Source: a virus
Lineage: Duplodnaviria > Caudoviricetes
Reading direction: 5' to 3' (one strand)
IMG/VR virus record: IMGVR_UViG_3300049988_000124
Location: 243,822 to 307,821 of that record
Length of the DNA stretch: 64,000 bases
Shown: positions 3,251-59,450 of the stretch, in pieces
Position numbering within the stretch: the stretch's first letter is position 1
How the letters are laid out: each line of letters starts with the position of its first letter
Notes under the pieces: model-generated
Seen by the model: the letters and a program-made list of their open reading frames with translations, nothing else
The model's database searches: none
Told to the model about the DNA's origin: nothing
Made by a program: the position numbers and the translations under genes

Positions 3251-6200
3251 TCACAATCCTATTCTCTCATCTTCTAGTTCGAGGTTAGCGCTTTCCTTTG
3301 ATGCGTCGATAACTTGCTTATACTCACGCTCGTCAGGATCAGGGCCTGCGAAGTCTGCACCAACGATGCTGTTGATGAGTTCGCGCACCTCTGCTAGGAT
3401 CTCGTCGGTACGAGATGACACGTTGGGAACACCGCCAGTATCAAGGGTTACCTCGATAATCGTGACCGGGTGAATCTGTCCCAATCGGTCCGCACGAGCA
3501 ATCACCTGATCATAGGTAGCCTGCCGGTAGGGACGATTGAGTAGCACCACCGTCGAGGCGGCAATCACCGGAACGGCCTCTGAGAGCGACTGCATAGTCG
3601 CACAGATCGGATTTACATTCGGGTCATCAGTGAAGCGGTTGATGTTCTTGGTTAGGTCTGCGTTGGTATCAGCGTAGACCATGAGGGGCTCAAAGCCCTG
3701 ATCGGTCAGATGCTTACTCAAGACCTTAACCGGTAGCACTGAGGAGGCAAAGAAGAGTGTCTTGGAGAGCGACTCTTTCATGATCACGTCGGGCTTACAG
3801 AACACACCCAAGGCTGCTGCACATTCTGATCGACGCTTAGCGAGGATCGTGCCCAATGCCTCGCCTCGCACCTTCAGCTTCAAGTTCTTCACAGCGGACA
3901 GAGCATTTCTGAACTCACTGCGATTGATCGGTGGAATTGACGGATAGAGTTTGGTCCGCTCGTAGGTACGACACGCAGCCATCTGGTCCGTCATCATGAG
4001 GTCAGGTGCTCTCATGATCATCTTGAGATTCTTCTGATAGGTGTAGAAAGCTTGACGGTCTTGACGAGATTCTAACTTATTCTCGTGGTAGTTCATGTAA
4101 AAATCAACGAGCTTACGATAATGCTTGATGTTGTCTTTATACATGGTCAACTGCTTCTGGATGAACTCTTTCATCTCCTCCCTGACTGTTGACATCAGGA
4201 ATTTATGAGCAAGGGCTGGAGGCAATCTGACGGGAAGTTCTTTTACCACAGGCTTGGTGGCAGAGAAAGCAGACTTACCGACCATGAAGGCCATCTGCTG
4301 ACCCAAACGATGTTGGAAGATTTCGCCTGCCTTACCAGGAGACATCGTGAAGATCTGCTTGAAGCGTCGCTCTGCATCAGCATCGAACCGGTGGTCCGAG
4401 CATTTGAGAAACGAGACCATCTCAGCGGCACTCTTCAGGATCGGTGAGCCTGATGTCCACAAGAATAGAACATCGTCTCTTAGAGTCTGGAGCTTTACGA
4501 GCTGCTGAGTACGGTTGGAGCGCCAGTCCGCAAAGTTGTGGGACTCATCGACGATCACGAAATATTTGCGACCTTGAGCGTGGATCTTCTTGCCGAGTTC
4601 GATCGCTTTGTTGATCTGCTCGAAGTTGAAGATGTAATATTCGGTCTTCTTCTCTGGCATCGGTAAACCAGAGTCACAGCACCAGTAAGTCGGAGTCTTC
4701 TTAAAGACGCTGTTGATCGTCTTTTCCCAAACGAGGTGGAGTGCCTTCTTGGGAGAGATGATGATCTTGACATCAGCGACACTGGGAGGAACCACGCATT
4801 CAGCGACGCAGAGATCAAGGAAGGTGTTGTGCGTCACGATGTAATCGTTCGTAATGTACAAACGATCAGGGTGATCAACAGAGATACACTGGGCCTGCTT
4901 CTTACCGACGTAACGAATCTTTTCAATACGCAGGCGCAAGCTGTCCTTGTACTGGTAGTTCTCAGGAGTCAGCTCCTTCTTGCGAGGAAGACGGAAGAGG
5001 TCGGTAGGCTCGCGGTAGCGAATGTTAACCTGATAAGCAGGCTTACCTTCCTTGCGCTCACCCTTGTAGGTGTAGTGCGTCTGTTTAGTCTTGATGCGAG
5101 CAAGACCACCAATGCTGCGAATCAACTCCTGTATGTGCTTAGCGAGCTGTTCGCTAGTTGTGCAGAATGACGTACTTCCATTCTCACTGACGGTTCCGTC
5201 CGAATCCATCAGACCTTGAATAAGCGCAAGCTTCTGAGAGAAGGAGGCATTCAGGTAGACATCCGGAACAAACTTGGTATGACTACGAGTACTGTTGAGT
5301 TTGAGAGCATGAAGCTGATCAACCAACATCGATCTCGACCAACGCTTCTCCCGTGTCTTCTTCACGACTTGATAGTCGTACGAAGACCTGGACTTATCGG
5401 GCCGGTACACCAACTCAGAATCGTCGGGAAGCAGATGTGAGACCTGGTCTACAATGAAGCCATCTGCCGAGGAAATCGACACCGTTCCTTCACGGATGTG
5501 TCCATCACCAAGGATGATGCCGAGAAGGTAGGGATCAATGGATAGCTGAACGTCTTCCTTGATCTCTGGCTCGGGAAGAGGAACGTAGAGACGACTGGGT
5601 TCGAGTTGGTGATTGTCCATATGTAGACGAATGTCAATGAAGGGAACGACCTTCCAACCATCCACACGACCGTCCTTGTTGGAGCGTGCCCAATCCTTGT
5701 GTCGAACTTTCCAGAGGTGGTCATCACAGCATTCCACTGAACGACCGTCCTCAAAGGTTACTTCGTACATGTCGAGCTCACCTTGCGGATAAACTCCAGT
5801 AACGAACGAGGTTCCACCATCGGGTGTAACAATGGGCTGACCAACGGTCATGTCACCATTGCGCATCCATCCTGACGGAGTACGAATGAGATCTTCTAGG
5901 CCTAGCGCTTTACCACCACCAGGGGCAAAGCCGATGATGTAACCACGCAAGTCATAGCGCGGCATCCGGTCACCGAAGAGATGAAGGAACTCAATCTGCT
6001 TGGGCATGGCCTGCCACTTCATCTGATTGAGACGCTTCATGTCGATGATTGACTTAACCTCGCCGGTACTAACCTTGAACCACGTGTCCTCGAGGAGTCC
6101 TTTGACGATCTTGTCGATGGTGCGCTTACCCGACCACGTCGTGCGCTCATCGTGACGCAATTTGGCAAGCATGAAGATTAGGTCGGGGACGAAGAAGCGA

Positions 6201-6385
6201 TTGAGCGTGAAAGCAGTGTCGGTGATGGAGGTAAACATCTTCTTGGCGATCACGTCTGTCTCAAAGAGAATCTTGAAGTGATTGCGTAAGATGAGACCGT
6301 CGACACCGGTAATCTTGACCAGGTTACCTGTCTCTTTAACACTGATCATTCCGAAGGCTCGGGCGAAATATTCCATGAATTTCAT
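3251..6385 (-). CDS. SNF2/SF2-like helicase interrupted by an intein
   Basis: Walker A GFAPGGGK/T split by the intein; motif II VDESH, motif III SGSP, motif VI QVIARADRLGQ. Confidence 0.85.
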   Translation of the reverse strand: MKFMEYFARAFGMISVKETGNLVKITGVDGLILRNHFKILFETDVIAKKMFTSITDTAFTLNRFFVPDLIFMLAKLRHDERTTWSGKRTIDKIVKGLLEDTWFKVSTGEVKSIIDMKRLNQMKWQAMPKQIEFLHLFGDRMPRYDLRGYIIGFAPGGGKALGLEDLIRTPSGWMRNGDMTVGQPIVTPDGGTSFVTGVYPQGELDMYEVTFEDGRSVECCDDHLWKVRHKDWARSNKDGRVDGWKVVPFIDIRLHMDNHQLEPSRLYVPLPEPEIKEDVQLSIDPYLLGIILGDGHIREGTVSISSADGFIVDQVSHLLPDDSELVYRPDKSRSSYDYQVVKKTREKRWSRSMLVDQLHALKLNSTRSHTKFVPDVYLNASFSQKLALIQGLMDSDGTVSENGSTSFCTTSEQLAKHIQELIRSIGGLARIKTKQTHYTYKGERKEGKPAYQVNIRYREPTDLFRLPRKKELTPENYQYKDSLRLRIEKIRYVGKKQAQCISVDHPDRLYITNDYIVTHNTFLDLCVAECVVPPSVADVKIIISPKKALHLVWEKTINSVFKKTPTYWCCDSGLPMPEKKTEYYIFNFEQINKAIELGKKIHAQGRKYFVIVDESHNFADWRSNRTQQLVKLQTLRDDVLFLWTSGSPILKSAAEMVSFLKCSDHRFDADAERRFKQIFTMSPGKAGEIFQHRLGQQMAFMVGKSAFSATKPVVKELPVRLPPALAHKFLMSTVREEMKEFIQKQLTMYKDNIKHYRKLVDFYMNYHENKLESRQDRQAFYTYQKNLKMIMRAPDLMMTDQMAACRTYERTKLYPSIPPINRSEFRNALSAVKNLKLKVRGEALGTILAKRRSECAAALGVFCKPDVIMKESLSKTLFFASSVLPVKVLSKHLTDQGFEPLMVYADTNADLTKNINRFTDDPNVNPICATMQSLSEAVPVIAASTVVLLNRPYRQATYDQVIARADRLGQIHPVTIIEVTLDTGGVPNVSSRTDEILAEVRELINSIVGADFAGPDPDEREYKQVIDASKESANLELEDERIGL
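4826..5908 (-). mobile_element. class 3-type intein (361 aa) with LAGLIDADG homing endonuclease
   Basis: Begins Ala (ALGLEDLIRTPSGW), ends VTHN followed by Thr+1; block B DDHLW, block F QCISVD; LAGLIDADG motifs LGIILGDG and QGLMDSDG. Confidence 0.88.
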
Positions 6386-6432
6386 GACGGTTCCTGTCAT
6401 GGCTAATAACATAGGATTTTTGATGAAAGAAA

Positions 6433-6460
6433 GTAGGAGGGGGCTGATGCCCCCTCCTAC
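6433..6460. terminator. intrinsic terminator-like hairpin
   Basis: gtaggagggggc-tgat-gccccctcctac. Confidence 0.7.
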
Positions 6461-6467
6461 CCCTTAG

Positions 6468-7985
6468 TCAGTACGAACTAGTACAGTGAAAGATCTTCTG
6501 CAAGATCTGGCGAATCTCACCGATCTTGAACGGCTTCTTCAGAACCGTATATCCTTCAAGCTCTGCACTGTCAGAGAAACCAGTCACGAAGACCACTTCC
6601 AAATCAGGGTGAAGGAGCTTGGCTGAGCGGATGACCTGTGCTCCGTTCATAACGGGCATGGCGTAGTCAATGACGACCAGGTCAGGACGGTTGTCCTTCA
6701 GGTAGACCAATGCATCCATACCGTCGACCGCTGTCTTGACGTGGTGACCAAGAAGCGTCAAGATCTCCGAGAGCGTCTCCCGGACACCTGGATCATCGTC
6801 GACCAGGAGGATGTTCTTGGCCTCACACATCTGGATGAGATTACCGGCTACTACCTCTTCCTGGAAGATCGCTGCGTTCTTAACGACGGGCAGACTGATC
6901 GTGATCGTGGTACCCTTCTCCGACGTCTTCTTGATGTAGACATCGCCGCCTGACTGATTAGCCAGACCGTAAACCATGCTGAGACCAAGACCTGTTCCCT
7001 TACCAATATCCTTGGTAGTGAAGAACGGCTCAAAGACGCGCGCCGCAACATCGGCAGGAATACCAATACCGGTATCAGTGACGTTGATCTCAACCTCGTC
7101 ATTCTCGATGATCGTGGAGATCGTGAGACTACCGCCCTCGGGCATTGCGTCGCGAGCGTTGACCGCCAGGTTCAAGATAGCCAGTTCAAGCTGAACCGGA
7201 TCAGTGCGCACCACTACGTCGGTGATGTTGGAGGTGGAGATCTGAATGTCTGGACCGATGGTCCGGGTGATCAACTGCCTGACGTTCATGATGACCGGAG
7301 CCAGTTCCACTTCCTTGATCTGGAGCTTCTGGTTACGCGAGAACGTCAGGAGCTGTGCAGTCAGATGTGATGCTCTCGATATTGCCTCAATACCAACACC
7401 CACCCAGCGCGGTACACGGTCACTGTGGGGATTACTACTGATGAGCTCGAGGCTACCACTGATGGCTTGGACGAGATTGTTAAAGTCGTGCGCAATGCCG
7501 CCTGTTAACTGGCCCACTGCTTCCATCTTCTGTGACTGGAGCAGGTGAGTCTGTGCGCGCTCTTTCTCGTCCTTCTCGATCTTAAGCTCTTGGATCTTCT
7601 GCTCGAGCTGGCGATTAAGGGCATCAATCTTAGCAAAAGAAGGAAGCTTGATCGCTGTTGGAATAAGGAACCACAGACTACCCAAGGCTAGAATGGAGAG
7701 AAGTGAGGAAATGAGTTGCATGGTGGGTGAGGGTGAGTGGTTCTCCACGGTCATCCCAAAAACGGCCCAGGCTCTACCGAGCGCACAAACAGCATTTGAG
7801 ATCAGGAAGAACCAGATAAACTTGTTGTCGCGAAGGTCAGGGCGTTCCTTTAGAACCTTGGTCGACAACGTGGCATTAGTTGTGTGAAAAGCACCAGCGA
7901 AGAGATGGGTAAGAATGGAGGCAAGAACAGGCCAGGGATTCGGCCCGAAATACTGAACGGCTAATAGCCAAAAATCTGCGGACAC
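6468..7985 (-). CDS. membrane-bound hybrid sensor histidine kinase/response regulator
   Basis: H-box [11 protein letters not shown]-box [12 protein letters not shown]1 [14 protein letters not shown]2 GTGLGL; receiver with VDDD, IDYAMP, TG, KPF; N-terminal TM segments. Confidence 0.93.
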
Positions 7986-8000
7986 GGGGATGATATTCCT

Positions 8001-8336
8001 TTAACCAGTATAAAGCGAGGGGCTGTATATATCGAAGGAATCGCCGCGTTGCTTAAAGGCACGACCATTCCAAGTCACTTGTTTTTGCAAGAACTTTTGC
8101 TTGTCAAAGACCACGGTGTCCCCGACCTTCATGATCTGCATGTCGTGGACTTGGGAGAGGTCTGGGTCACTAGCAAGGTGAACCGGCATTCCAGTTTTGT
8201 CGGCAACGTTGATGTAGAATGAATTCTGTTGTCCGGCAGGCAGATCAGTAATGATCTGAATGATCGCGCCGGAGCCCGGAGGCTCACGGTGAGTGTGAGT
8301 AAGTCGTTGGACTTGCGTGATCTTTGCCGTGCGCAT
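8001..8336 (-). CDS. hypothetical protein upstream of the kinase
   Basis: 111-aa ORF, GAGGA RBS, co-oriented with the kinase. Confidence 0.55.
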   Translation of the reverse strand: MRTAKITQVQRLTHTHREPPGSGAIIQIITDLPAGQQNSFYINVADKTGMPVHLASDPDLSQVHDMQIMKVGDTVVFDKQKFLQKQVTWNGRAFKQRGDSFDIYSPSLYTG

Positions 8337-8580: not shown

Positions 8581-9468
8581 GTGACTCAGGAGATTCTACG
8601 CTCAAAGCAAGACAAGTCCATTAACTTTGTAACACACGCCGATGATGGTGGTAAGATCGAAGCTCGCTTTGTTCAACGCGAAGAAGACACGATCATTGTC
8701 TACCTCTCCTCGATGACGGGGTGCAACCTTAGTTGTCGTTTCTGCCATCTGACCCAGATGCACGAGACCACGATGACGGCCGTTGACATCGATGGGTATC
8801 TTACCCAAGCCCGCGATGTTCTGACGCTCGCTGCCAAAGAAGGCAAGCTTGCCAATGTTCAGACGGTGCATTTCAACTTCATGGCGAGGGGAGATGCTCT
8901 ATCGAACATCTACTTTGTCAACAAGACCGAGTTGTTGTTCTACCGGCTAGATAGTCTCTCGGCTGAACATGGTCTTATCTCCAAGTTCAAGATCTCCACG
9001 ATCTTTCCCAACACACTCCTGGATAGCTTCACCCTTCCTATGTTGAAAGAATGGGTGGAGCAGGTCTACGATCTTCCCTACGACGTTGAGTTCTATTACT
9101 CCCTTTATTCACTGGACGAGGCGTTCAGGAAGAGGTGGATTCCCAAAGGAATGGATCCCGAACGTGTCGGTTATCTCTTTGAGGGAACAGAGGGAAAGCT
9201 TCGTCTCCATCACGCCCTGATCGACAAAGAGAATTGCTCACTGGCTAACACCAATCCGATCAAGAGTTGGTTGGTCAGGTATGACATCAAATGTCGTTTA
9301 AACATCGTACGCTATAATCCTTTCAACAACGGATCAGGTGTAGAAGCCTCCGACGGGGACATTCGCACTTATTGTGGTATCATGTCATTGTGCCCCAATA
9401 TCCTGGGTACTTACGTAGTCAGTCGCGTCGGTCTCGACGTCAAAGCTAGTTGCGGAACATTCGTGTGA
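8581..9468 (+). CDS. RlmN/Cfr-like radical SAM enzyme
   Basis: SSMTGCNLSCRFC (CxxxCxxC), FMARGD aligning to MGMGE, YNP, C-terminal ASCG; GTG start with GGAGG. Confidence 0.8.
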   Translation: MTQEILRSKQDKSINFVTHADDGGKIEARFVQREEDTIIVYLSSMTGCNLSCRFCHLTQMHETTMTAVDIDGYLTQARDVLTLAAKEGKLANVQTVHFNFMARGDALSNIYFVNKTELLFYRLDSLSAEHGLISKFKISTIFPNTLLDSFTLPMLKEWVEQVYDLPYDVEFYYSLYSLDEAFRKRWIPKGMDPERVGYLFEGTEGKLRLHHALIDKENCSLANTNPIKSWLVRYDIKCRLNIVRYNPFNNGSGVEASDGDIRTYCGIMSLCPNILGTYVVSRVGLDVKASCGTFV

Positions 9469-19096: not shown

Positions 19097-19186
19097 GGAA
19101 GTGTGGCTGAGCGGTCGAAGGCTCCCGACTTGAAATCGGGCGTACCTTTGCGGGTATCCAGGGTTCGAATCCCTGCGCTTCCGCCA
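19097..19186 (+). tRNA. tRNA-Ser(TGA)
   Basis: Acceptor GGAAGTG/CGCTTCC, G73, encoded CCA, loop CT-TGA-AA, long variable arm, GTTCGAATC T-loop. Confidence 0.93.
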
Positions 19187-19210
19187 ACAAATTTACCTAG
19201 GGTCTTTTAT

Positions 19211-19399
19211 ATGCAAGTCACCGAAGATCAGCTCCAGACACTAGCAGAGCGTTTCTGCGCTGCGCCTCTTCCCAAGAGCGTGTGCAGTGATGGATGCGTT
19301 ACTGATCCCAATTATCCCCATCCCCGCTTCGGTACCAATCTACTGACCGTGGCTGAGGCTAAGGAAGTACTCAGGGAGACCTTGAAGGATCCTCTCTGA
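19211..19399 (+). CDS. small hypothetical protein between tRNAs
   Basis: Start moved to MQVTEDQ because the upstream part of the track ORF is the tRNA. Confidence 0.55.
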   Translation: MQVTEDQLQTLAERFCAAPLPKSVCSDGCVTDPNYPHPRFGTNLLTVAEAKEVLRETLKDPL

Positions 19400-19408
19400 G
19401 ATCAACCC

Positions 19409-19496
19409 GGACAGGTGGGTGAGTGGTTTAAACCAACGCTTTGCTAAAGCGTCGTACCTCCGGGTACCCCGAGTTCGAATCTCGGTCTGTCCGCCA
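19409..19496 (+). tRNA. tRNA-Ser(GCT)
   Basis: Acceptor GGACAGG/TCTGTCC, G73, CCA, loop TT-GCT-AA, long variable arm. Confidence 0.93.
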
Positions 19497-56438: not shown

Positions 56439-56514
56439 TGGTGAGTCCTCCGGGATTCGAACCCGGGACACGCGAATTAAAAGTCCGCTGCTCTACCTAC
56501 TGAGCTAAGGACCC
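56439..56514 (-). tRNA. tRNA-Lys(TTT)
   Basis: 76-nt cloverleaf, loop CT-TTT-AA, encoded CCA. Confidence 0.93.
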
Positions 56515-56651
56515 TCACACCATTAACCATATCGACATTGTAGAAACCATACGGTCGGCGTAACAATCGTTGGTAGGACTATTGTCCTTTTGCTTAAAGG
56601 GTCGGTCCAATTACCCTGTTCAAACAACCACTACAATATCGATAAAGGTAA

Positions 56652-56726
56652 TGGTGCCCCTTGTACGATTTGAACGCACGACCTTCGCTTTACAAAAGCG
56701 CTGCTCTACCGCTGAGCTAAAAGGGC
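56652..56726 (-). tRNA. tRNA-Thr(TGT)
   Basis: Cloverleaf, loop TT-TGT-AA, encoded CCA. Confidence 0.9.
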
Positions 56727-56739
56727 TAACCATTTTTGA

Positions 56740-56964
56740 CTACACACCGTTCTTGGGGTCTTGGGGTAGTGTGTCTAAACCATTGTAGAAAGGGACGGGT
56801 TCATGCTCATCGCCAACAGCAAAGATGGCGATGTCACCATCGACGATTTCGATCTGTGCCCGTCTATCCCACTTCATATGAATAAAGTCAGGCTTACCCC
56901 AGATACGAACAGCGGAGTGATATTCGTCTCCTCGAAAGCCGATAAAATGAACGATGGCTTTCAT
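56740..56964 (-). CDS. small hypothetical protein
   Basis: HFIGFRGDEY..A.RIWG.PDFIH..WD.RA pattern typical of small phage proteins. Confidence 0.6.
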   Translation of the reverse strand: MKAIVHFIGFRGDEYHSAVRIWGKPDFIHMKWDRRAQIEIVDGDIAIFAVGDEHEPVPFYNGLDTLPQDPKNGV

Positions 56965-56987
56965 GGTGGATTCCATGTTAGATAAAA

Positions 56988-57107
56988 CACCGTAGGTAGG
57001 ACTCGACAGCCTACTAACCCACTTCTTTCGGACAGTAGAGCATCTTTCATCTCATTTGCAGGCGGGTCTCCTGTTGTCCTAGCGTGTCCATCCACGCTGC
57101 TACGGTG
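56988..57107 (-). ncRNA. tRNA-like RNA with expanded anticodon domain (candidate)
   Basis: 8-bp closing stem CACCGTAG/CTACGGTG, D-like arm GCGT-GGATGGAC-ACGC, T-like arm GTAGG-CTGTCGAGT-CCTAC; no anticodon loop or CCA. Confidence 0.5.
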
Positions 57108-57217
57108 CTACTTCCTCGGGGGAGGAACTATGTATTCACTGTCAAGATTGCCAAAGCGCTCATAAGAGTCATTTAACCTCTATACCCCAAGCCATGAGGA
57201 AGAGAGATGGTTAAACG

Positions 57218-57444
57218 AAAGCGGACCTGCCGGGTGTGGTTACCCGGTCACGACTTTTCAGGCCCCATCAGAAGATCATTTCTGATATCCAATCGGCTAG
57301 GTTTGAGCCACGCCTGTCACCCGCTTTGACAATCTTGCTAGTGGATCTAAATCCCTACTGTGGCCGATGACGCACAAGCTGTGTCGGCATTTCACGTCTG
57401 TGTGCCCAACGGGACCGGGTTAGAGCCCAGCACACTCACAGTAG
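57218..57444 (-). ncRNA. structured two-domain ncRNA with H-type pseudoknot (candidate)
   Basis: Stems CTACTGTG/CACAGTAG and AAAGCGG/CCGCTTT enclose several hairpins; crossed GACG/CGTC and GCCGA/TCGGC helices; ORF-free. Confidence 0.55.
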
Positions 57445-57456
57445 AGAAGGACGTAT

Positions 57457-57684
57457 TCACATTCGTGTAAAGAAACTGCATCTAGGTCCAGCGGGTACGT
57501 GGTAGAACCGATCCCGCCACTGGTCATCGCCTTGTGCGAACTCACCTTTGTGACCATCGACTATGTACATGGGTACACCGTGATAGTCGACGATGTCGGT
57601 AATCTTACTCACGGATTTCTCATGGTCCGCGAAAGGCTTATGAATGCTGAGCTTGACAGGATCGCCAATCTTTAGCTTTGCCAC
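57457..57684 (-). CDS. small SH3/KOW-like hypothetical protein
   Basis: LKIGDPV start; GAGGA RBS. Confidence 0.55.
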   Translation of the reverse strand: MAKLKIGDPVKLSIHKPFADHEKSVSKITDIVDYHGVPMYIVDGHKGEFAQGDDQWRDRFYHVPAGPRCSFFTRM

Positions 57685-57685
57685 G

Positions 57686-57883
57686 TCAGTTCCTCACGAT
57701 TCGATTTTCATCGATCTCACTGAAGTCACTGTCGTCACGATCGAACTCGGTGTTACCGATAACAGCGATCCATCCCTTAGGAAAAGATGAACGACGCCAG
57801 AGAGCAATTGTCCACTGCTCCCCATCTCTCACCCAATAGAAACCAGGCTTTCTGGAGTTGGTTGCTTCCTCAAAAGTGGTCAT
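57686..57883 (-). CDS. small hypothetical protein (GFYWVR family, paralog 1)
   Basis: Start moved to MTTFEE; similar to 58362..58559. Confidence 0.6.
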   Translation of the reverse strand: MTTFEEATNSRKPGFYWVRDGEQWTIALWRRSSFPKGWIAVIGNTEFDRDDSDFSEIDENRIVRN

Positions 57884-57992
57884 GTGATTCTTTCGCAATA
57901 ACGACACCGTAGGGCCGTAGTGTGTTTGCAAGGGGACTACTATCTTCCTAAAAGGAAACGTATCCTTACGGTGCCGATAATGTAAAAGAGAA

Positions 57993-58069
57993 TGGAGCGA
58001 CGAGTCGGGATCGAACCGACGACCTAAAGATTTGCAATCTTCCGCAACTACCAACTGTGCTACCGCCGC
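57993..58069 (-). tRNA. tRNA-Cys(GCA)
   Basis: Cloverleaf, loop TT-GCA-AA, U73 discriminator, encoded CCA. Confidence 0.9.
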
Positions 58070-58088
58070 TCAAGTATAATGAAGCAAG

Positions 58089-58160
58089 CTCGAGTGACAG
58101 GATTCGAACCTGTGACCAAGGCATTAACAGTGCCCTACTCTACCGCTGAGCTACACTCGA
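58089..58160 (-). tRNA. tRNA-Asn(GTT), CCA not encoded
   Basis: Loop CT-GTT-AA, G73, canonical D and T arms. Confidence 0.85.
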
Positions 58161-58170
58161 GCTTGCTCCA

Positions 58171-58365
58171 CTACGGATTGATCCACTGGTTCAACGAATC
58201 AGCTGACCACAGAGGACGACGTCCCATCCAAATAGTCGGCTTTGGAAAAGGAGATAGCTCCCCGTTGATGTAAGCGAGAAGTGTTCCCATTCTCAGGCGT
58301 TCAAAAGAACTACGAGAAATAAGTAGCTTCTCACAAATGGCTTTGATTCCAAGGAGAGTAATCAT
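58171..58365 (-). CDS. AlpA/excisionase-like HTH protein
   Basis: LLGIKAICEKLLISRSSFERL...FPKP...GRRPLW....L.QWI. Confidence 0.7.
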   Translation of the reverse strand: MITLLGIKAICEKLLISRSSFERLRMGTLLAYINGELSPFPKPTIWMGRRPLWSADSLNQWINP

Positions 58366-58559
58366 GATGAATTCCTCACAATACGGAGTTCATCGATCTC
58401 TTGGAATTCATCGTCGTAGAAACGTTCATCGGTACTTGTTAGCATCCATCTCGATAGGCACGGAATACTATCACCGTGCCACTCAGCGATGACCCATTCG
58501 ACGGTATCCCTTACCCAGTAGAACCCGTTTTCTCTAACTGGCTTATCTGCTTGTTCCAT
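58362..58559 (-). CDS. small hypothetical protein (GFYWVR family, paralog 2)
   Basis: TAATG coupling with the upstream gene; GFYWVRD..W..A.W...EIDE.RIVRN shared with paralog 1. Confidence 0.6.
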   Translation of the reverse strand: MEQADKPVRENGFYWVRDTVEWVIAEWHGDSIPCLSRWMLTSTDERFYDDEFQEIDELRIVRNSS

Positions 58560-58849
58560 TATAGAACCTGCCAATCTTCAGCGAGAATATCAGATGTGCT
58601 AGGCACCCAAACAGCAACATCTTCATCCACAGTCTTTAGTGCAAAGTAAGCACGGTAAGGAATCATCTCACCCTCACCGAAATACTCTTTGGCTGCACCG
58701 GTCTGCACTGGGTAGGATGCTGCGGGAACCATGTAGGCGAACATGCCCTTACCGTTCCAGCCAGCACGTGTGATACGCTTGCCTTCTTTCAAAGCTCTAA
58801 GCGCTATTCCGAAGTCGAGCTGACTACTTAAAGAGATTTGCCTCCCCAT
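58559..58849 (-). CDS. DUF2829 / Tad2-family anti-defence nucleotide sponge
   Basis: FG.AL..LKEGKRITRAGWNGKGMF...W.PS.SDILAEDW. Confidence 0.85.
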   Translation of the reverse strand: MGRQISLSSQLDFGIALRALKEGKRITRAGWNGKGMFAYMVPAASYPVQTGAAKEYFGEGEMIPYRAYFALKTVDEDVAVWVPSTSDILAEDWQVL

Positions 58850-58878
58850 TACGACTCAACTCCTTTCATGAAAGAGAT

Positions 58879-58966
58879 TGGTGGGAAGAGCTGGATTCGA
58901 ACCAACGTTCACCATTACGTGAGCAGATTTACAGTCTGCCGCCTTCAGCCACTCGGCCACCTTCCC
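58879..58966 (-). tRNA. tRNA-Tyr(GTA)
   Basis: Loop CT-GTA-AA, long variable arm, A73, encoded CCA. Confidence 0.93.
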
Positions 58967-59039: not shown

Positions 59040-59450
59040 TAGGAATTTACTACGCCGTCATTGAGGTGAGTCGCTGACTAAGCGTAGCTGCCGTTAGGCA
59101 ACGAGACGGATGTCCATCTCATTGTCGTTGGCTGCGACTGCGGGGTTATTCGCATTCACTGTGGATGGCTTTTTGTCGACTAGGTTCCCCTGGTCCGTGG
59201 GCAGCCATGCCCGGTCGCGTATTCTCGCCACAACACACGTCGATCCTGGTTCAGACCCATCATAGCCACTGACTAGGGAAGATTAGATGTAAAGGCGATA
59301 ACCCTTCATCCTCTTATCGAGCCCAGGTGCTCTATCCTTTGCAAGAGCCAGTGACTATGGTGGATCTGGCCGGTACTGCCCCGGCGTCCGCTGCGCGCTT
59401 TGATATCCCGATTAATTTACGACCATTACCCTCTTGCGAGGATCTGTTTG
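59040..59450 (-). ncRNA. ssrA: circularly permuted two-piece tmRNA (alphaproteobacterial type); outer ends approximate
   Basis: Acceptor piece ends CCGGGGCAGTACCGG-CCAGATCC-A-CCA at 59358; coding piece starts GGGTCTGAACCAGGATCGAC at 59258; acceptor stem has the G3.U70 pair. Confidence 0.9.
59094..59132 (-). other. tmRNA tag reading frame (A)ANDNEMDIRLVA*
   Basis: GCC AAC GAC AAT resume context matches the ANDN start of alphaproteobacterial tags; TAA sits in a hairpin. Confidence 0.88.

Follow-up and report, generated by a model that had tools for sequence, protein, structure and literature searches.

Histidine kinases with an ethylene-binding domain have been described from plants, from cyanobacteria, and from a small number of proteobacteria, and to our knowledge only two bacterial examples have been shown to work. 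The gene described here encodes a hybrid histidine kinase with a strongly diverged sensor of this type (P0001; 6468..7985, minus strand). It lies in a phage genome, in the final 64 kb (64,000 nucleotides, positions 243,822 to 307,821; hereafter the window) of the 307,821-bp IMG/VR virus record IMGVR_UViG_3300049988_000124. As judged from its sequence, this kinase probably rewires host signaling without sensing ethylene.

In Arabidopsis ETR1, Cys65 and His69 coordinate the Cu(I) cofactor with the help of Asp25, as implicated by Cys65Ser/His69Ala and Asp25 mutant versions (PMC10266040). Asp25 is critical for both copper and ethylene binding, with D25A abolishing the latter, and Lys91 has a role in ethylene binding and couples it to signal output, such that replacements without basic character lower ethylene binding while copper binding is unaffected (PMC10266040). 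The phage kinase shares the homologous sensor fold (model residues 1-137), including a conserved end of the third transmembrane segment (TM3) and the helix that follows, and by its residues resembles a natural multi-site binding mutant of ETR1. SynEtr1 of Synechocystis and AzoEtr1 of Azospirillum brasilense likewise join an N-terminal three-helix domain to a histidine kinase and signal by phosphotransfer, and ethylene inhibits the kinase activity of ETR1 and probably also of SynEtr1 (PMC11819568). Both bacterial receptors keep the seven binding residues, bind 14C-ethylene, contain domains of PAS or phytochrome type, and are encoded next to a response regulator. In the phage kinase most site residues are lost, Pfam detects no PAS domain, and a partner gene is lacking.

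The nearest cellular group by profile consists of orphan kinases of the Sphingomonadales, including P0104 of Sphingomonas glaciei and P0054 of Sphingomonas sp. These have the same four domains as the phage protein, fall in a 520-540 amino acid (aa) length class, lack PAS or GAF domains between sensor and kinase, and are 43-48% identical to it over the kinase core. Unlike the phage protein, they retain every residue of the ligand site, together with a PHGxC motif at the N-terminus, their sensor is more conserved than their core, and the 111-aa gene that neighbors the phage kinase is absent at the loci examined. CckA, the cell-cycle hybrid kinase of alphaproteobacteria, belongs to the same kinase subfamily, with the HDFNN H box and a receiver in hybrid architecture, and among named NCBIfam models it gave the second-best match to the core, but it differs by its PAS domains and sensor. 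The phage protein was rejected as a CckA orthologue, because its NCBIfam scores of 264 and 228.5 bits lie far below the equivalog cut-off of 1000 and it has no PAS domains.

Viral kinases of cellular origin include an AgrC-type kinase in a Clostridium difficile phage and hybrid kinases in the Ectocarpus virus EsV-1 (cited in PMC6324907), the sensors of which are of other types. The first-pass annotation, which was made from the window sequence, held full signaling kinases to be very rare in lytic phages. This calls for qualification, as the PHROGs hybrid-kinase family phrog_5982 matches the protein (E 1.2e-97) and 76 IMG/VR loci hold kinase-receiver relatives; an ETR1_N-type sensor was found in none of those 76 loci. 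Literature searches gave no report of an ethylene-binding-domain kinase in a phage or virus.

A complete hybrid kinase with a diverged ethylene-binding-domain sensor

The kinase gene is a 505-aa open reading frame with a GTG start codon and an AAGGA Shine-Dalgarno sequence ~10 nt 5' of the start. Pfam identified three domains, all above cut-off: HisKA at residues 158-219 (7329..7514, minus strand), HATPase_c at 262-367 (6885..7202, minus), and Response_reg at 392-495 (6501..6812, minus). A motif script located the H box of the dimerization and phospho-acceptor domain at 162-171, with His166 within HDFNN, the N (268-281), G1 (302-310), F (317-325), and G2 (328-338) boxes of the catalytic domain, and in the receiver the Asp396/397 pair, Asp440, Thr468, and Lys483. 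All catalytic boxes and receiver residues are invariant across the eight phage homologues described below. The complete hybrid kinase of the first-pass annotation was thus upheld: by motif, kinase and receiver are shown to be catalytically complete and under strong constraint, and from these motifs we infer autophosphorylation and His-to-Asp transfer by the phage protein. It is the sole kinase and receiver of the phage, as no further receiver, kinase ATPase, HPt, or ChpT-like domain was found in the whole 307,821-bp record, which extends to the full genome the earlier statement that no partner regulator is nearby.

The sensor occupies residues 1-116 (7638..7985, minus strand) and is genuinely homologous to the ethylene-binding domain, although strongly diverged, and has kept the ETR1_N fold. 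A phmmer search with residues 1-140 against 1.84 billion proteins gave eight matches (E 2e-5 to 1e-3), all eight of which carry ETR1_N at 115-141 bits. Alignment by hhalign of a profile of seven phage sensors with one of eight canonical bacterial domains gave 99.8% probability (E 1.7e-28) over 122 ungapped columns. The Pfam ETR1_N model (PF25487) scores the phage protein below its 27-bit cut-off (16.9 bits with the full-length protein, 21.4 with residues 1-140 alone), and five related phage kinases (P0010, P0011, P0014, P0015, and P0016) exceed the cut-off at 38-117 bits. A word-indexed search with residues 1-140 returned no match beyond the protein itself.

An AlphaFold2 model of residues 1-150 (predicted local distance difference test, pLDDT, 92.9) places helices at 3-13, 17-47, 55-80, 87-113, and 117-149, which corresponds to a short N-terminal helix and three long helices followed by a continuous helix into the kinase. 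The input alignment included ETR1_N family members, so the model is consistent with the homology and is not independent evidence for it. Foldseek with this model gave weak E-values and placed several plant ethylene receptors, including ETR1, in the top 30 over residues 1-137. Descent from an ethylene-binding domain, as originally proposed, is borne out by phmmer and hhalign. The three hydrophobic segments proposed with it are present as three long predicted helices, but the first, the least hydrophobic of them, falls short of the Kyte-Doolittle cut of 1.2 that TM2 and TM3 reach. The string by which the TM3 end had been recognized corresponds to residues 104-128.

The linker that runs as a predicted continuous helix from TM3 to the phospho-acceptor helix (residues 117-157; 7515..7637, minus strand) is shorter than in most relatives by exactly seven residues in the alignment. 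As this is one exact heptad, the helix from sensor to kinase stays in register.

The ligand site and the constraint on the sensor

Positions were mapped to ETR1 by means of the hhalign register, which is free of gaps, together with an alignment of 51 sequences. Asp25, Cys65, His69, and Lys91 were chosen as site residues from published work (PMC10266040), and Asp25 corresponds to phage His27, Cys65 to Cys67, His69 to Arg71, and Lys91 to Gln90. In the canonical domain, Cys65 and His69 make up the CxxxH motif of helix 2, while Asp25 of helix 1 and Lys91 of helix 3 form a polar bridge. Tyr32 and Ile62, replaced by His34 and Asn64 in the phage, were added as positions that we take to belong to the ligand site, which is also supported by their conservation in 42 of the 43 bacterial homologues. 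Asp, Cys, and His are each conserved at the same level, and Lys in 39 of 43. Five of the six positions checked thus differ from ETR1, with Cys67 alone kept. The retained Cys and the change of His to Arg had been read correctly from the C-A-L-G-R segment (residues 67-71) in the first-pass annotation, which understated the extent of the change. Since the replaced residues have copper and ethylene roles, canonical Cu(I) and ethylene binding by the phage sensor is unlikely. With five positions replaced and not the His alone, the altered ligand specificity proposed earlier is one of two live readings and no more likely than a loss of ligand control.

The related phage kinases have different site patterns. 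In the order of the six positions, HHNCRQ occurs in this phage and in P0013, and the other remodeled copies have QHNCRY, NYNHRK, NYNYKR, DHIRHK, or DYLRHK. The canonical DYICHK is found in one clade member, P0010, which scores 117 bits on ETR1_N. Some derived residues recur in diverged copies: Asn64 together with Arg or Lys at position 71 in five, and His34 together with Cys67 in three (this phage, P0013, and P0012).

Constraint on the two halves of the protein is reversed relative to the bacterial homologues. Mean pairwise identity in bacteria is 0.74 for the sensor and 0.55 for the kinase core, compared to 0.25 and 0.57 in the phage clade, and at matched core divergence the bacterial sensor identity never fell below 0.58 while the phage maximum was 0.52. 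Such a reversal, in which constraint is released on the sensor but maintained on the kinase, provides a clear, quantifiable signature of a signaling gene after viral capture. The sensor is nevertheless under purifying selection and is not decaying: compared to a ~93% relative from phyllosphere run X6, codons 29-143 show at least 25 synonymous and at least seven conservative replacements (counts approximate), and none of the six site positions is changed among the differences listed.

A phage-only clade and its origin

Searches with the kinase core identified seven further proteins at 52-63% identity, encoded on contigs of 12-283 kb. These contigs are phage-like and have the gene order of the window, i.e., a radical-SAM-like gene (~295 aa), a ~110-aa gene, the kinase, and an SNF2 helicase. 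The eight kinases form one phage-only clade (Shimodaira-Hasegawa-like approximate likelihood ratio test support 99), and in a profile search they scored 794-839 bits, followed by a drop to 552 bits for the best cellular protein. The cellular neighbors are ETR1_N-HisKA-HATPase-REC proteins of 520-540 aa, the named ones from Sphingomonas, Allosphingosinicella, and Sphingomicrobium. Tree, profile, and synteny show, at the level of sequence comparison, that a jumbo-phage lineage acquired the kinase from such Sphingomonadales orphan kinases and kept it in a fixed block.

One related contig encodes two paralogous ethylene-receptor-type kinases that flank the ~110-aa gene (L006:8023-11548), the second of which is P0010. 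This protein keeps the PHGxC motif as well as all canonical copper and ethylene residues, and in the core tree it pairs with the remodeled copy P0011. The pairing hints at sensor replacement by recombination or at repeated loss of the canonical site.

Against deposited phages, blastn with the kinase gene gave no match and tblastn gave kinase-core matches only, at no more than 32% identity and many of them on bacterial or prophage records. A scan of viral contigs with the single kinase protein gave no match.

Phage linkage and host

The record is a 308-kb jumbo phage that CheckV rates 100% complete. The window contains split phiKZ-type RNA polymerase beta subunits, virion proteins, seven transfer RNAs (tRNAs), and a permuted transfer-messenger RNA (tmRNA), and the nearest isolated phages share only ~25-27% identity in a polymerase subunit. 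The phage is from leaf surfaces: the kinase gene is present in leaf metagenomes, and the runs with a smaller share of it include phyllosphere metagenomes, among them X6 with the ~93% relative; no RNA data set appeared among the runs listed for the gene. In leaf metagenome run X2, from a sample and study other than the likely source, contigs at 100% identity with zero differences span the helicase-kinase junction, and others run from 7564, a point within the sensor-coding end of the kinase gene, through the 111-aa and radical-SAM genes, with 7514-7563, also inside the kinase gene, unbridged among the pieces listed. As these contigs reach phage flanks on both sides, the contig check supports the earlier view of a phage-linked gene and leaves virtually no room for host contamination. 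A roughly five-fold spike of contig depth was observed at 7010-7343, in the conserved ATPase region, in leaf metagenome runs X1-X3; it is due to short pieces of 33-40 nt from other organisms' kinases and not to copy number.

On sequence grounds, the most likely host is a member of the alphaproteobacterial genus Sphingomonas. The permuted tmRNA is of alphaproteobacterial type (59094-59424, minus strand; RF04321 73.5 bits, RF01849 59.3 bits) and lies beside a tRNA cluster (56439-58966, minus), with further tRNAs at 19097-19496 (plus). Outside the window, at C1:74113-74493 and C1:72736-72954 (both minus strand), the phage record encodes a MucR homologue (112 bits) and a protein of 165 aa that joins a coiled-coil N-terminus to a winged-helix DNA-binding domain of OmpR/CtrA type and lacks a receiver. 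The species-genome collection yielded eight MucR relatives, every one from Sphingomonas, including a leaf isolate.

Proposed role and alternative explanations

A host-derived kinase with a remodeled ligand site that acts on a host phosphorelay is the moderately favored account of this gene. After infection, the protein would insert into the host inner membrane, autophosphorylate at His166, and pass the phosphoryl group to its own Asp440. As neither an HPt protein nor a response regulator is encoded by the phage, phosphoryl exchange would then take place with those of the host. Ethylene receptors that have lost ethylene binding through binding-site mutations stay in the signaling state, so that by analogy a ligand-blind phage copy would fix the host pathway in one state whatever the plant signal. 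The first-pass annotation had the phage inject the kinase, for which no support was found; the gene lies within a group of replication genes, and its expression would follow infection. Of the host pathways suggested there as examples, CckA-ChpT-CtrA and the general stress response, the second is a less likely target, since its kinases in Sphingomonas are of HWE/HisKA2 types and the phage kinase is of HisKA type. The locus offers a concrete case in which a phage supplies a complete sensor kinase and the host the rest of the phosphorelay, and a testable link between plant hormone signaling, leaf bacteria, and their phages. Its clade, with sensors ranging from canonical to heavily remodeled, constitutes a natural mutational series of the copper/ethylene site that is useful for receptor biochemistry.

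Several observations weigh against this account. Kinase activity, membrane insertion, and the absence of ethylene binding are all deduced from sequence, and the direction of output may be that of a kinase, a phosphatase, or a phosphate sink. The bacterial homologues are also orphans without an adjacent regulator, so synteny offers no clue to the pathway. ETR1_N proteins occur in only 25 of 151 sampled Sphingomonas genomes, a genus-wide search that also served as a check on the sensitivity of the PF25487 model, and the model gave no match in the five genomes with the closest MucR or in the control genomes. With ETR1_N in few candidate hosts, the pathway entered may not be the cellular ethylene-receptor pathway. 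The kept Cys67 and the new His residues at the Asp25 and Tyr32 positions of the facing helix may form a relocated Cys/His metal site, and the recurring derived residues and the purifying selection fit a new ligand as well as a ligand-blind anchor.

The last two points lead to alternatives in which the sensor still binds something. His27, His34, Asn64, Cys67, Arg71, and Gln90 could form a new pocket for another ligand or metal, which is possible if doubtful. In its favor, the derived residues coincide exactly with ligand-facing positions and appear repeatedly in diverged copies, purifying selection acts on the sensor, and the exact-heptad change of the linker keeps the helix register; a structural membrane anchor would also show purifying selection, and the mutual divergence of the phage sensors (mean 25% identity) together with six different site patterns fits relaxed or shifting constraint better than a single new ligand. 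That ethylene sensing or copper binding persists through a relocated site, formed by Cys67 with His27 or His34 of helix 1, is considered improbable. The joint retention of Cys67 and His34 in three phages and the leaf habitat, where ethylene is emitted, favor it, and the fully canonical P0010 means that the lineage had, and partly keeps, a canonical receptor. It has to contend with the replacement of the His69, Asp25, Tyr32, Ile62, and Lys91 equivalents, which are kept in 39-42 of the 43 bacterial homologues, and with the mutant versions of ETR1 that implicate Cys65, His69, and Asp25 in copper binding and the loss of ethylene binding in D25A (PMC10266040).

Other alternatives concern the output of the kinase or the gene itself. 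The protein could act mainly as a phosphatase, as a phosphate sink, or as a dominant mixed-dimer partner of a host kinase, in which case a host phosphorelay would be drained or blocked and not fed. At His166, the HDFNN motif is of a type known from bifunctional kinase/phosphatases such as CckA, a receiver in a phage without HPt can take phosphoryl groups from host HPt proteins, and the dimerization helix is almost identical to that of the cellular homologues. This account is rated unlikely. Against it stand the ATP-binding boxes, all of which show no variation across the clade and so point to a need for kinase activity, and the many candidate hosts that have no cellular homologue to serve as dimer partner. 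An origin by host contamination or chimeric assembly would fit the 43-48% identity of the core to bacterial kinases and the pile-up of short bacterial contigs at 7010-7343; against it are the independent zero-difference contigs over both the kinase-helicase junction and the passage from the sensor end into the 111-aa and radical-SAM genes, the completeness of the record, and eight clade members in the same phage block. A decaying passenger gene without function is at odds with invariant catalytic residues and a sensor under purifying selection, and an explanation by contamination, misassembly, or decay is highly improbable. In a broader scenario, which is speculative and of low probability, the jumbo phages of leaf-dwelling Sphingomonas have a kinase family of their own that derives from plant-hormone receptors. 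The phage with P0010, in which the ethylene site is fully canonical, could then use plant ethylene as a cue for timing or tuning its infection, and the copy studied here would have evolved a new ligand pocket and act with a phage-specific PmrD-like connector (see below) to seize a host phosphorelay.

Neighboring genes and other features

Directly upstream of the kinase lies a gene for a 111-aa beta-rich protein (8001..8336, minus strand), the stop codon of which is 15 nt before the kinase start. A homologue with 38-54% identity, often translationally coupled, is found beside the clade kinase in five of six related phage loci, and the gene is absent from the 76 other viral kinase loci and from the bacterial loci examined. 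The protein matched no Pfam family at E 0.01 or better, and so not PF11183, and no PHROG. An AlphaFold2 model (pLDDT 82) is predicted to be all-beta. VIA-align of the model against 48,161 chains ranked PmrD first and second (Z 6.2, root-mean-square deviation 3.0, 76 aligned residues; Z 5.3) and IraM bound to RssB fourth (Z 4.7), the Atlas structure search listed the PmrD family at a TM-score of 0.48, and a Foldseek search of the PDB had no match that reached E 0.001 (E 1.7). PmrD and IraM are small proteins that bind receiver domains, and the likeness is a lead only, since Z below 8 may reflect a common small beta-barrel. A complex prediction for the 111-aa protein with the kinase receiver domain scored 0.00, which carries no weight either way.

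In a related phage, a cREC_REC (PF20274) gene is located 7 kb from the kinase (L010:18368-18712). Domains of this family are a divergent receiver type linked to NAD/ADP-ribose systems in jumbo phages (PMC7824862).

The block is bounded by two syntenic anchors. Beyond the 111-aa gene and divergent from the kinase block is the radical-SAM-like gene of 295 aa (8581..9468, plus strand; Pfam 24.4 bits, phrog_27142 E 1.1e-68), with genes of 295-300 aa at the same position in three related contigs (L010, L011, and L005). Downstream of the kinase is the SNF2-type helicase (3251..6412, minus; Pfam, PHROGs), which contains a LAGLIDADG intein at about 4826-5909 (minus). A contig of the ~93% relative in run X6 skips 4825-5910, and the helicase homologues in L009-L011 are 683-684 aa long and without the intein; its absence from related phage helicases indicates an intein that moves among the phages of this group. 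The gap that separates the stop codon of the kinase from the start of the helicase gene contains a GC-rich hairpin without a clear T tract (6437-6454, minus), which could be an attenuator or an RNA-processing site.

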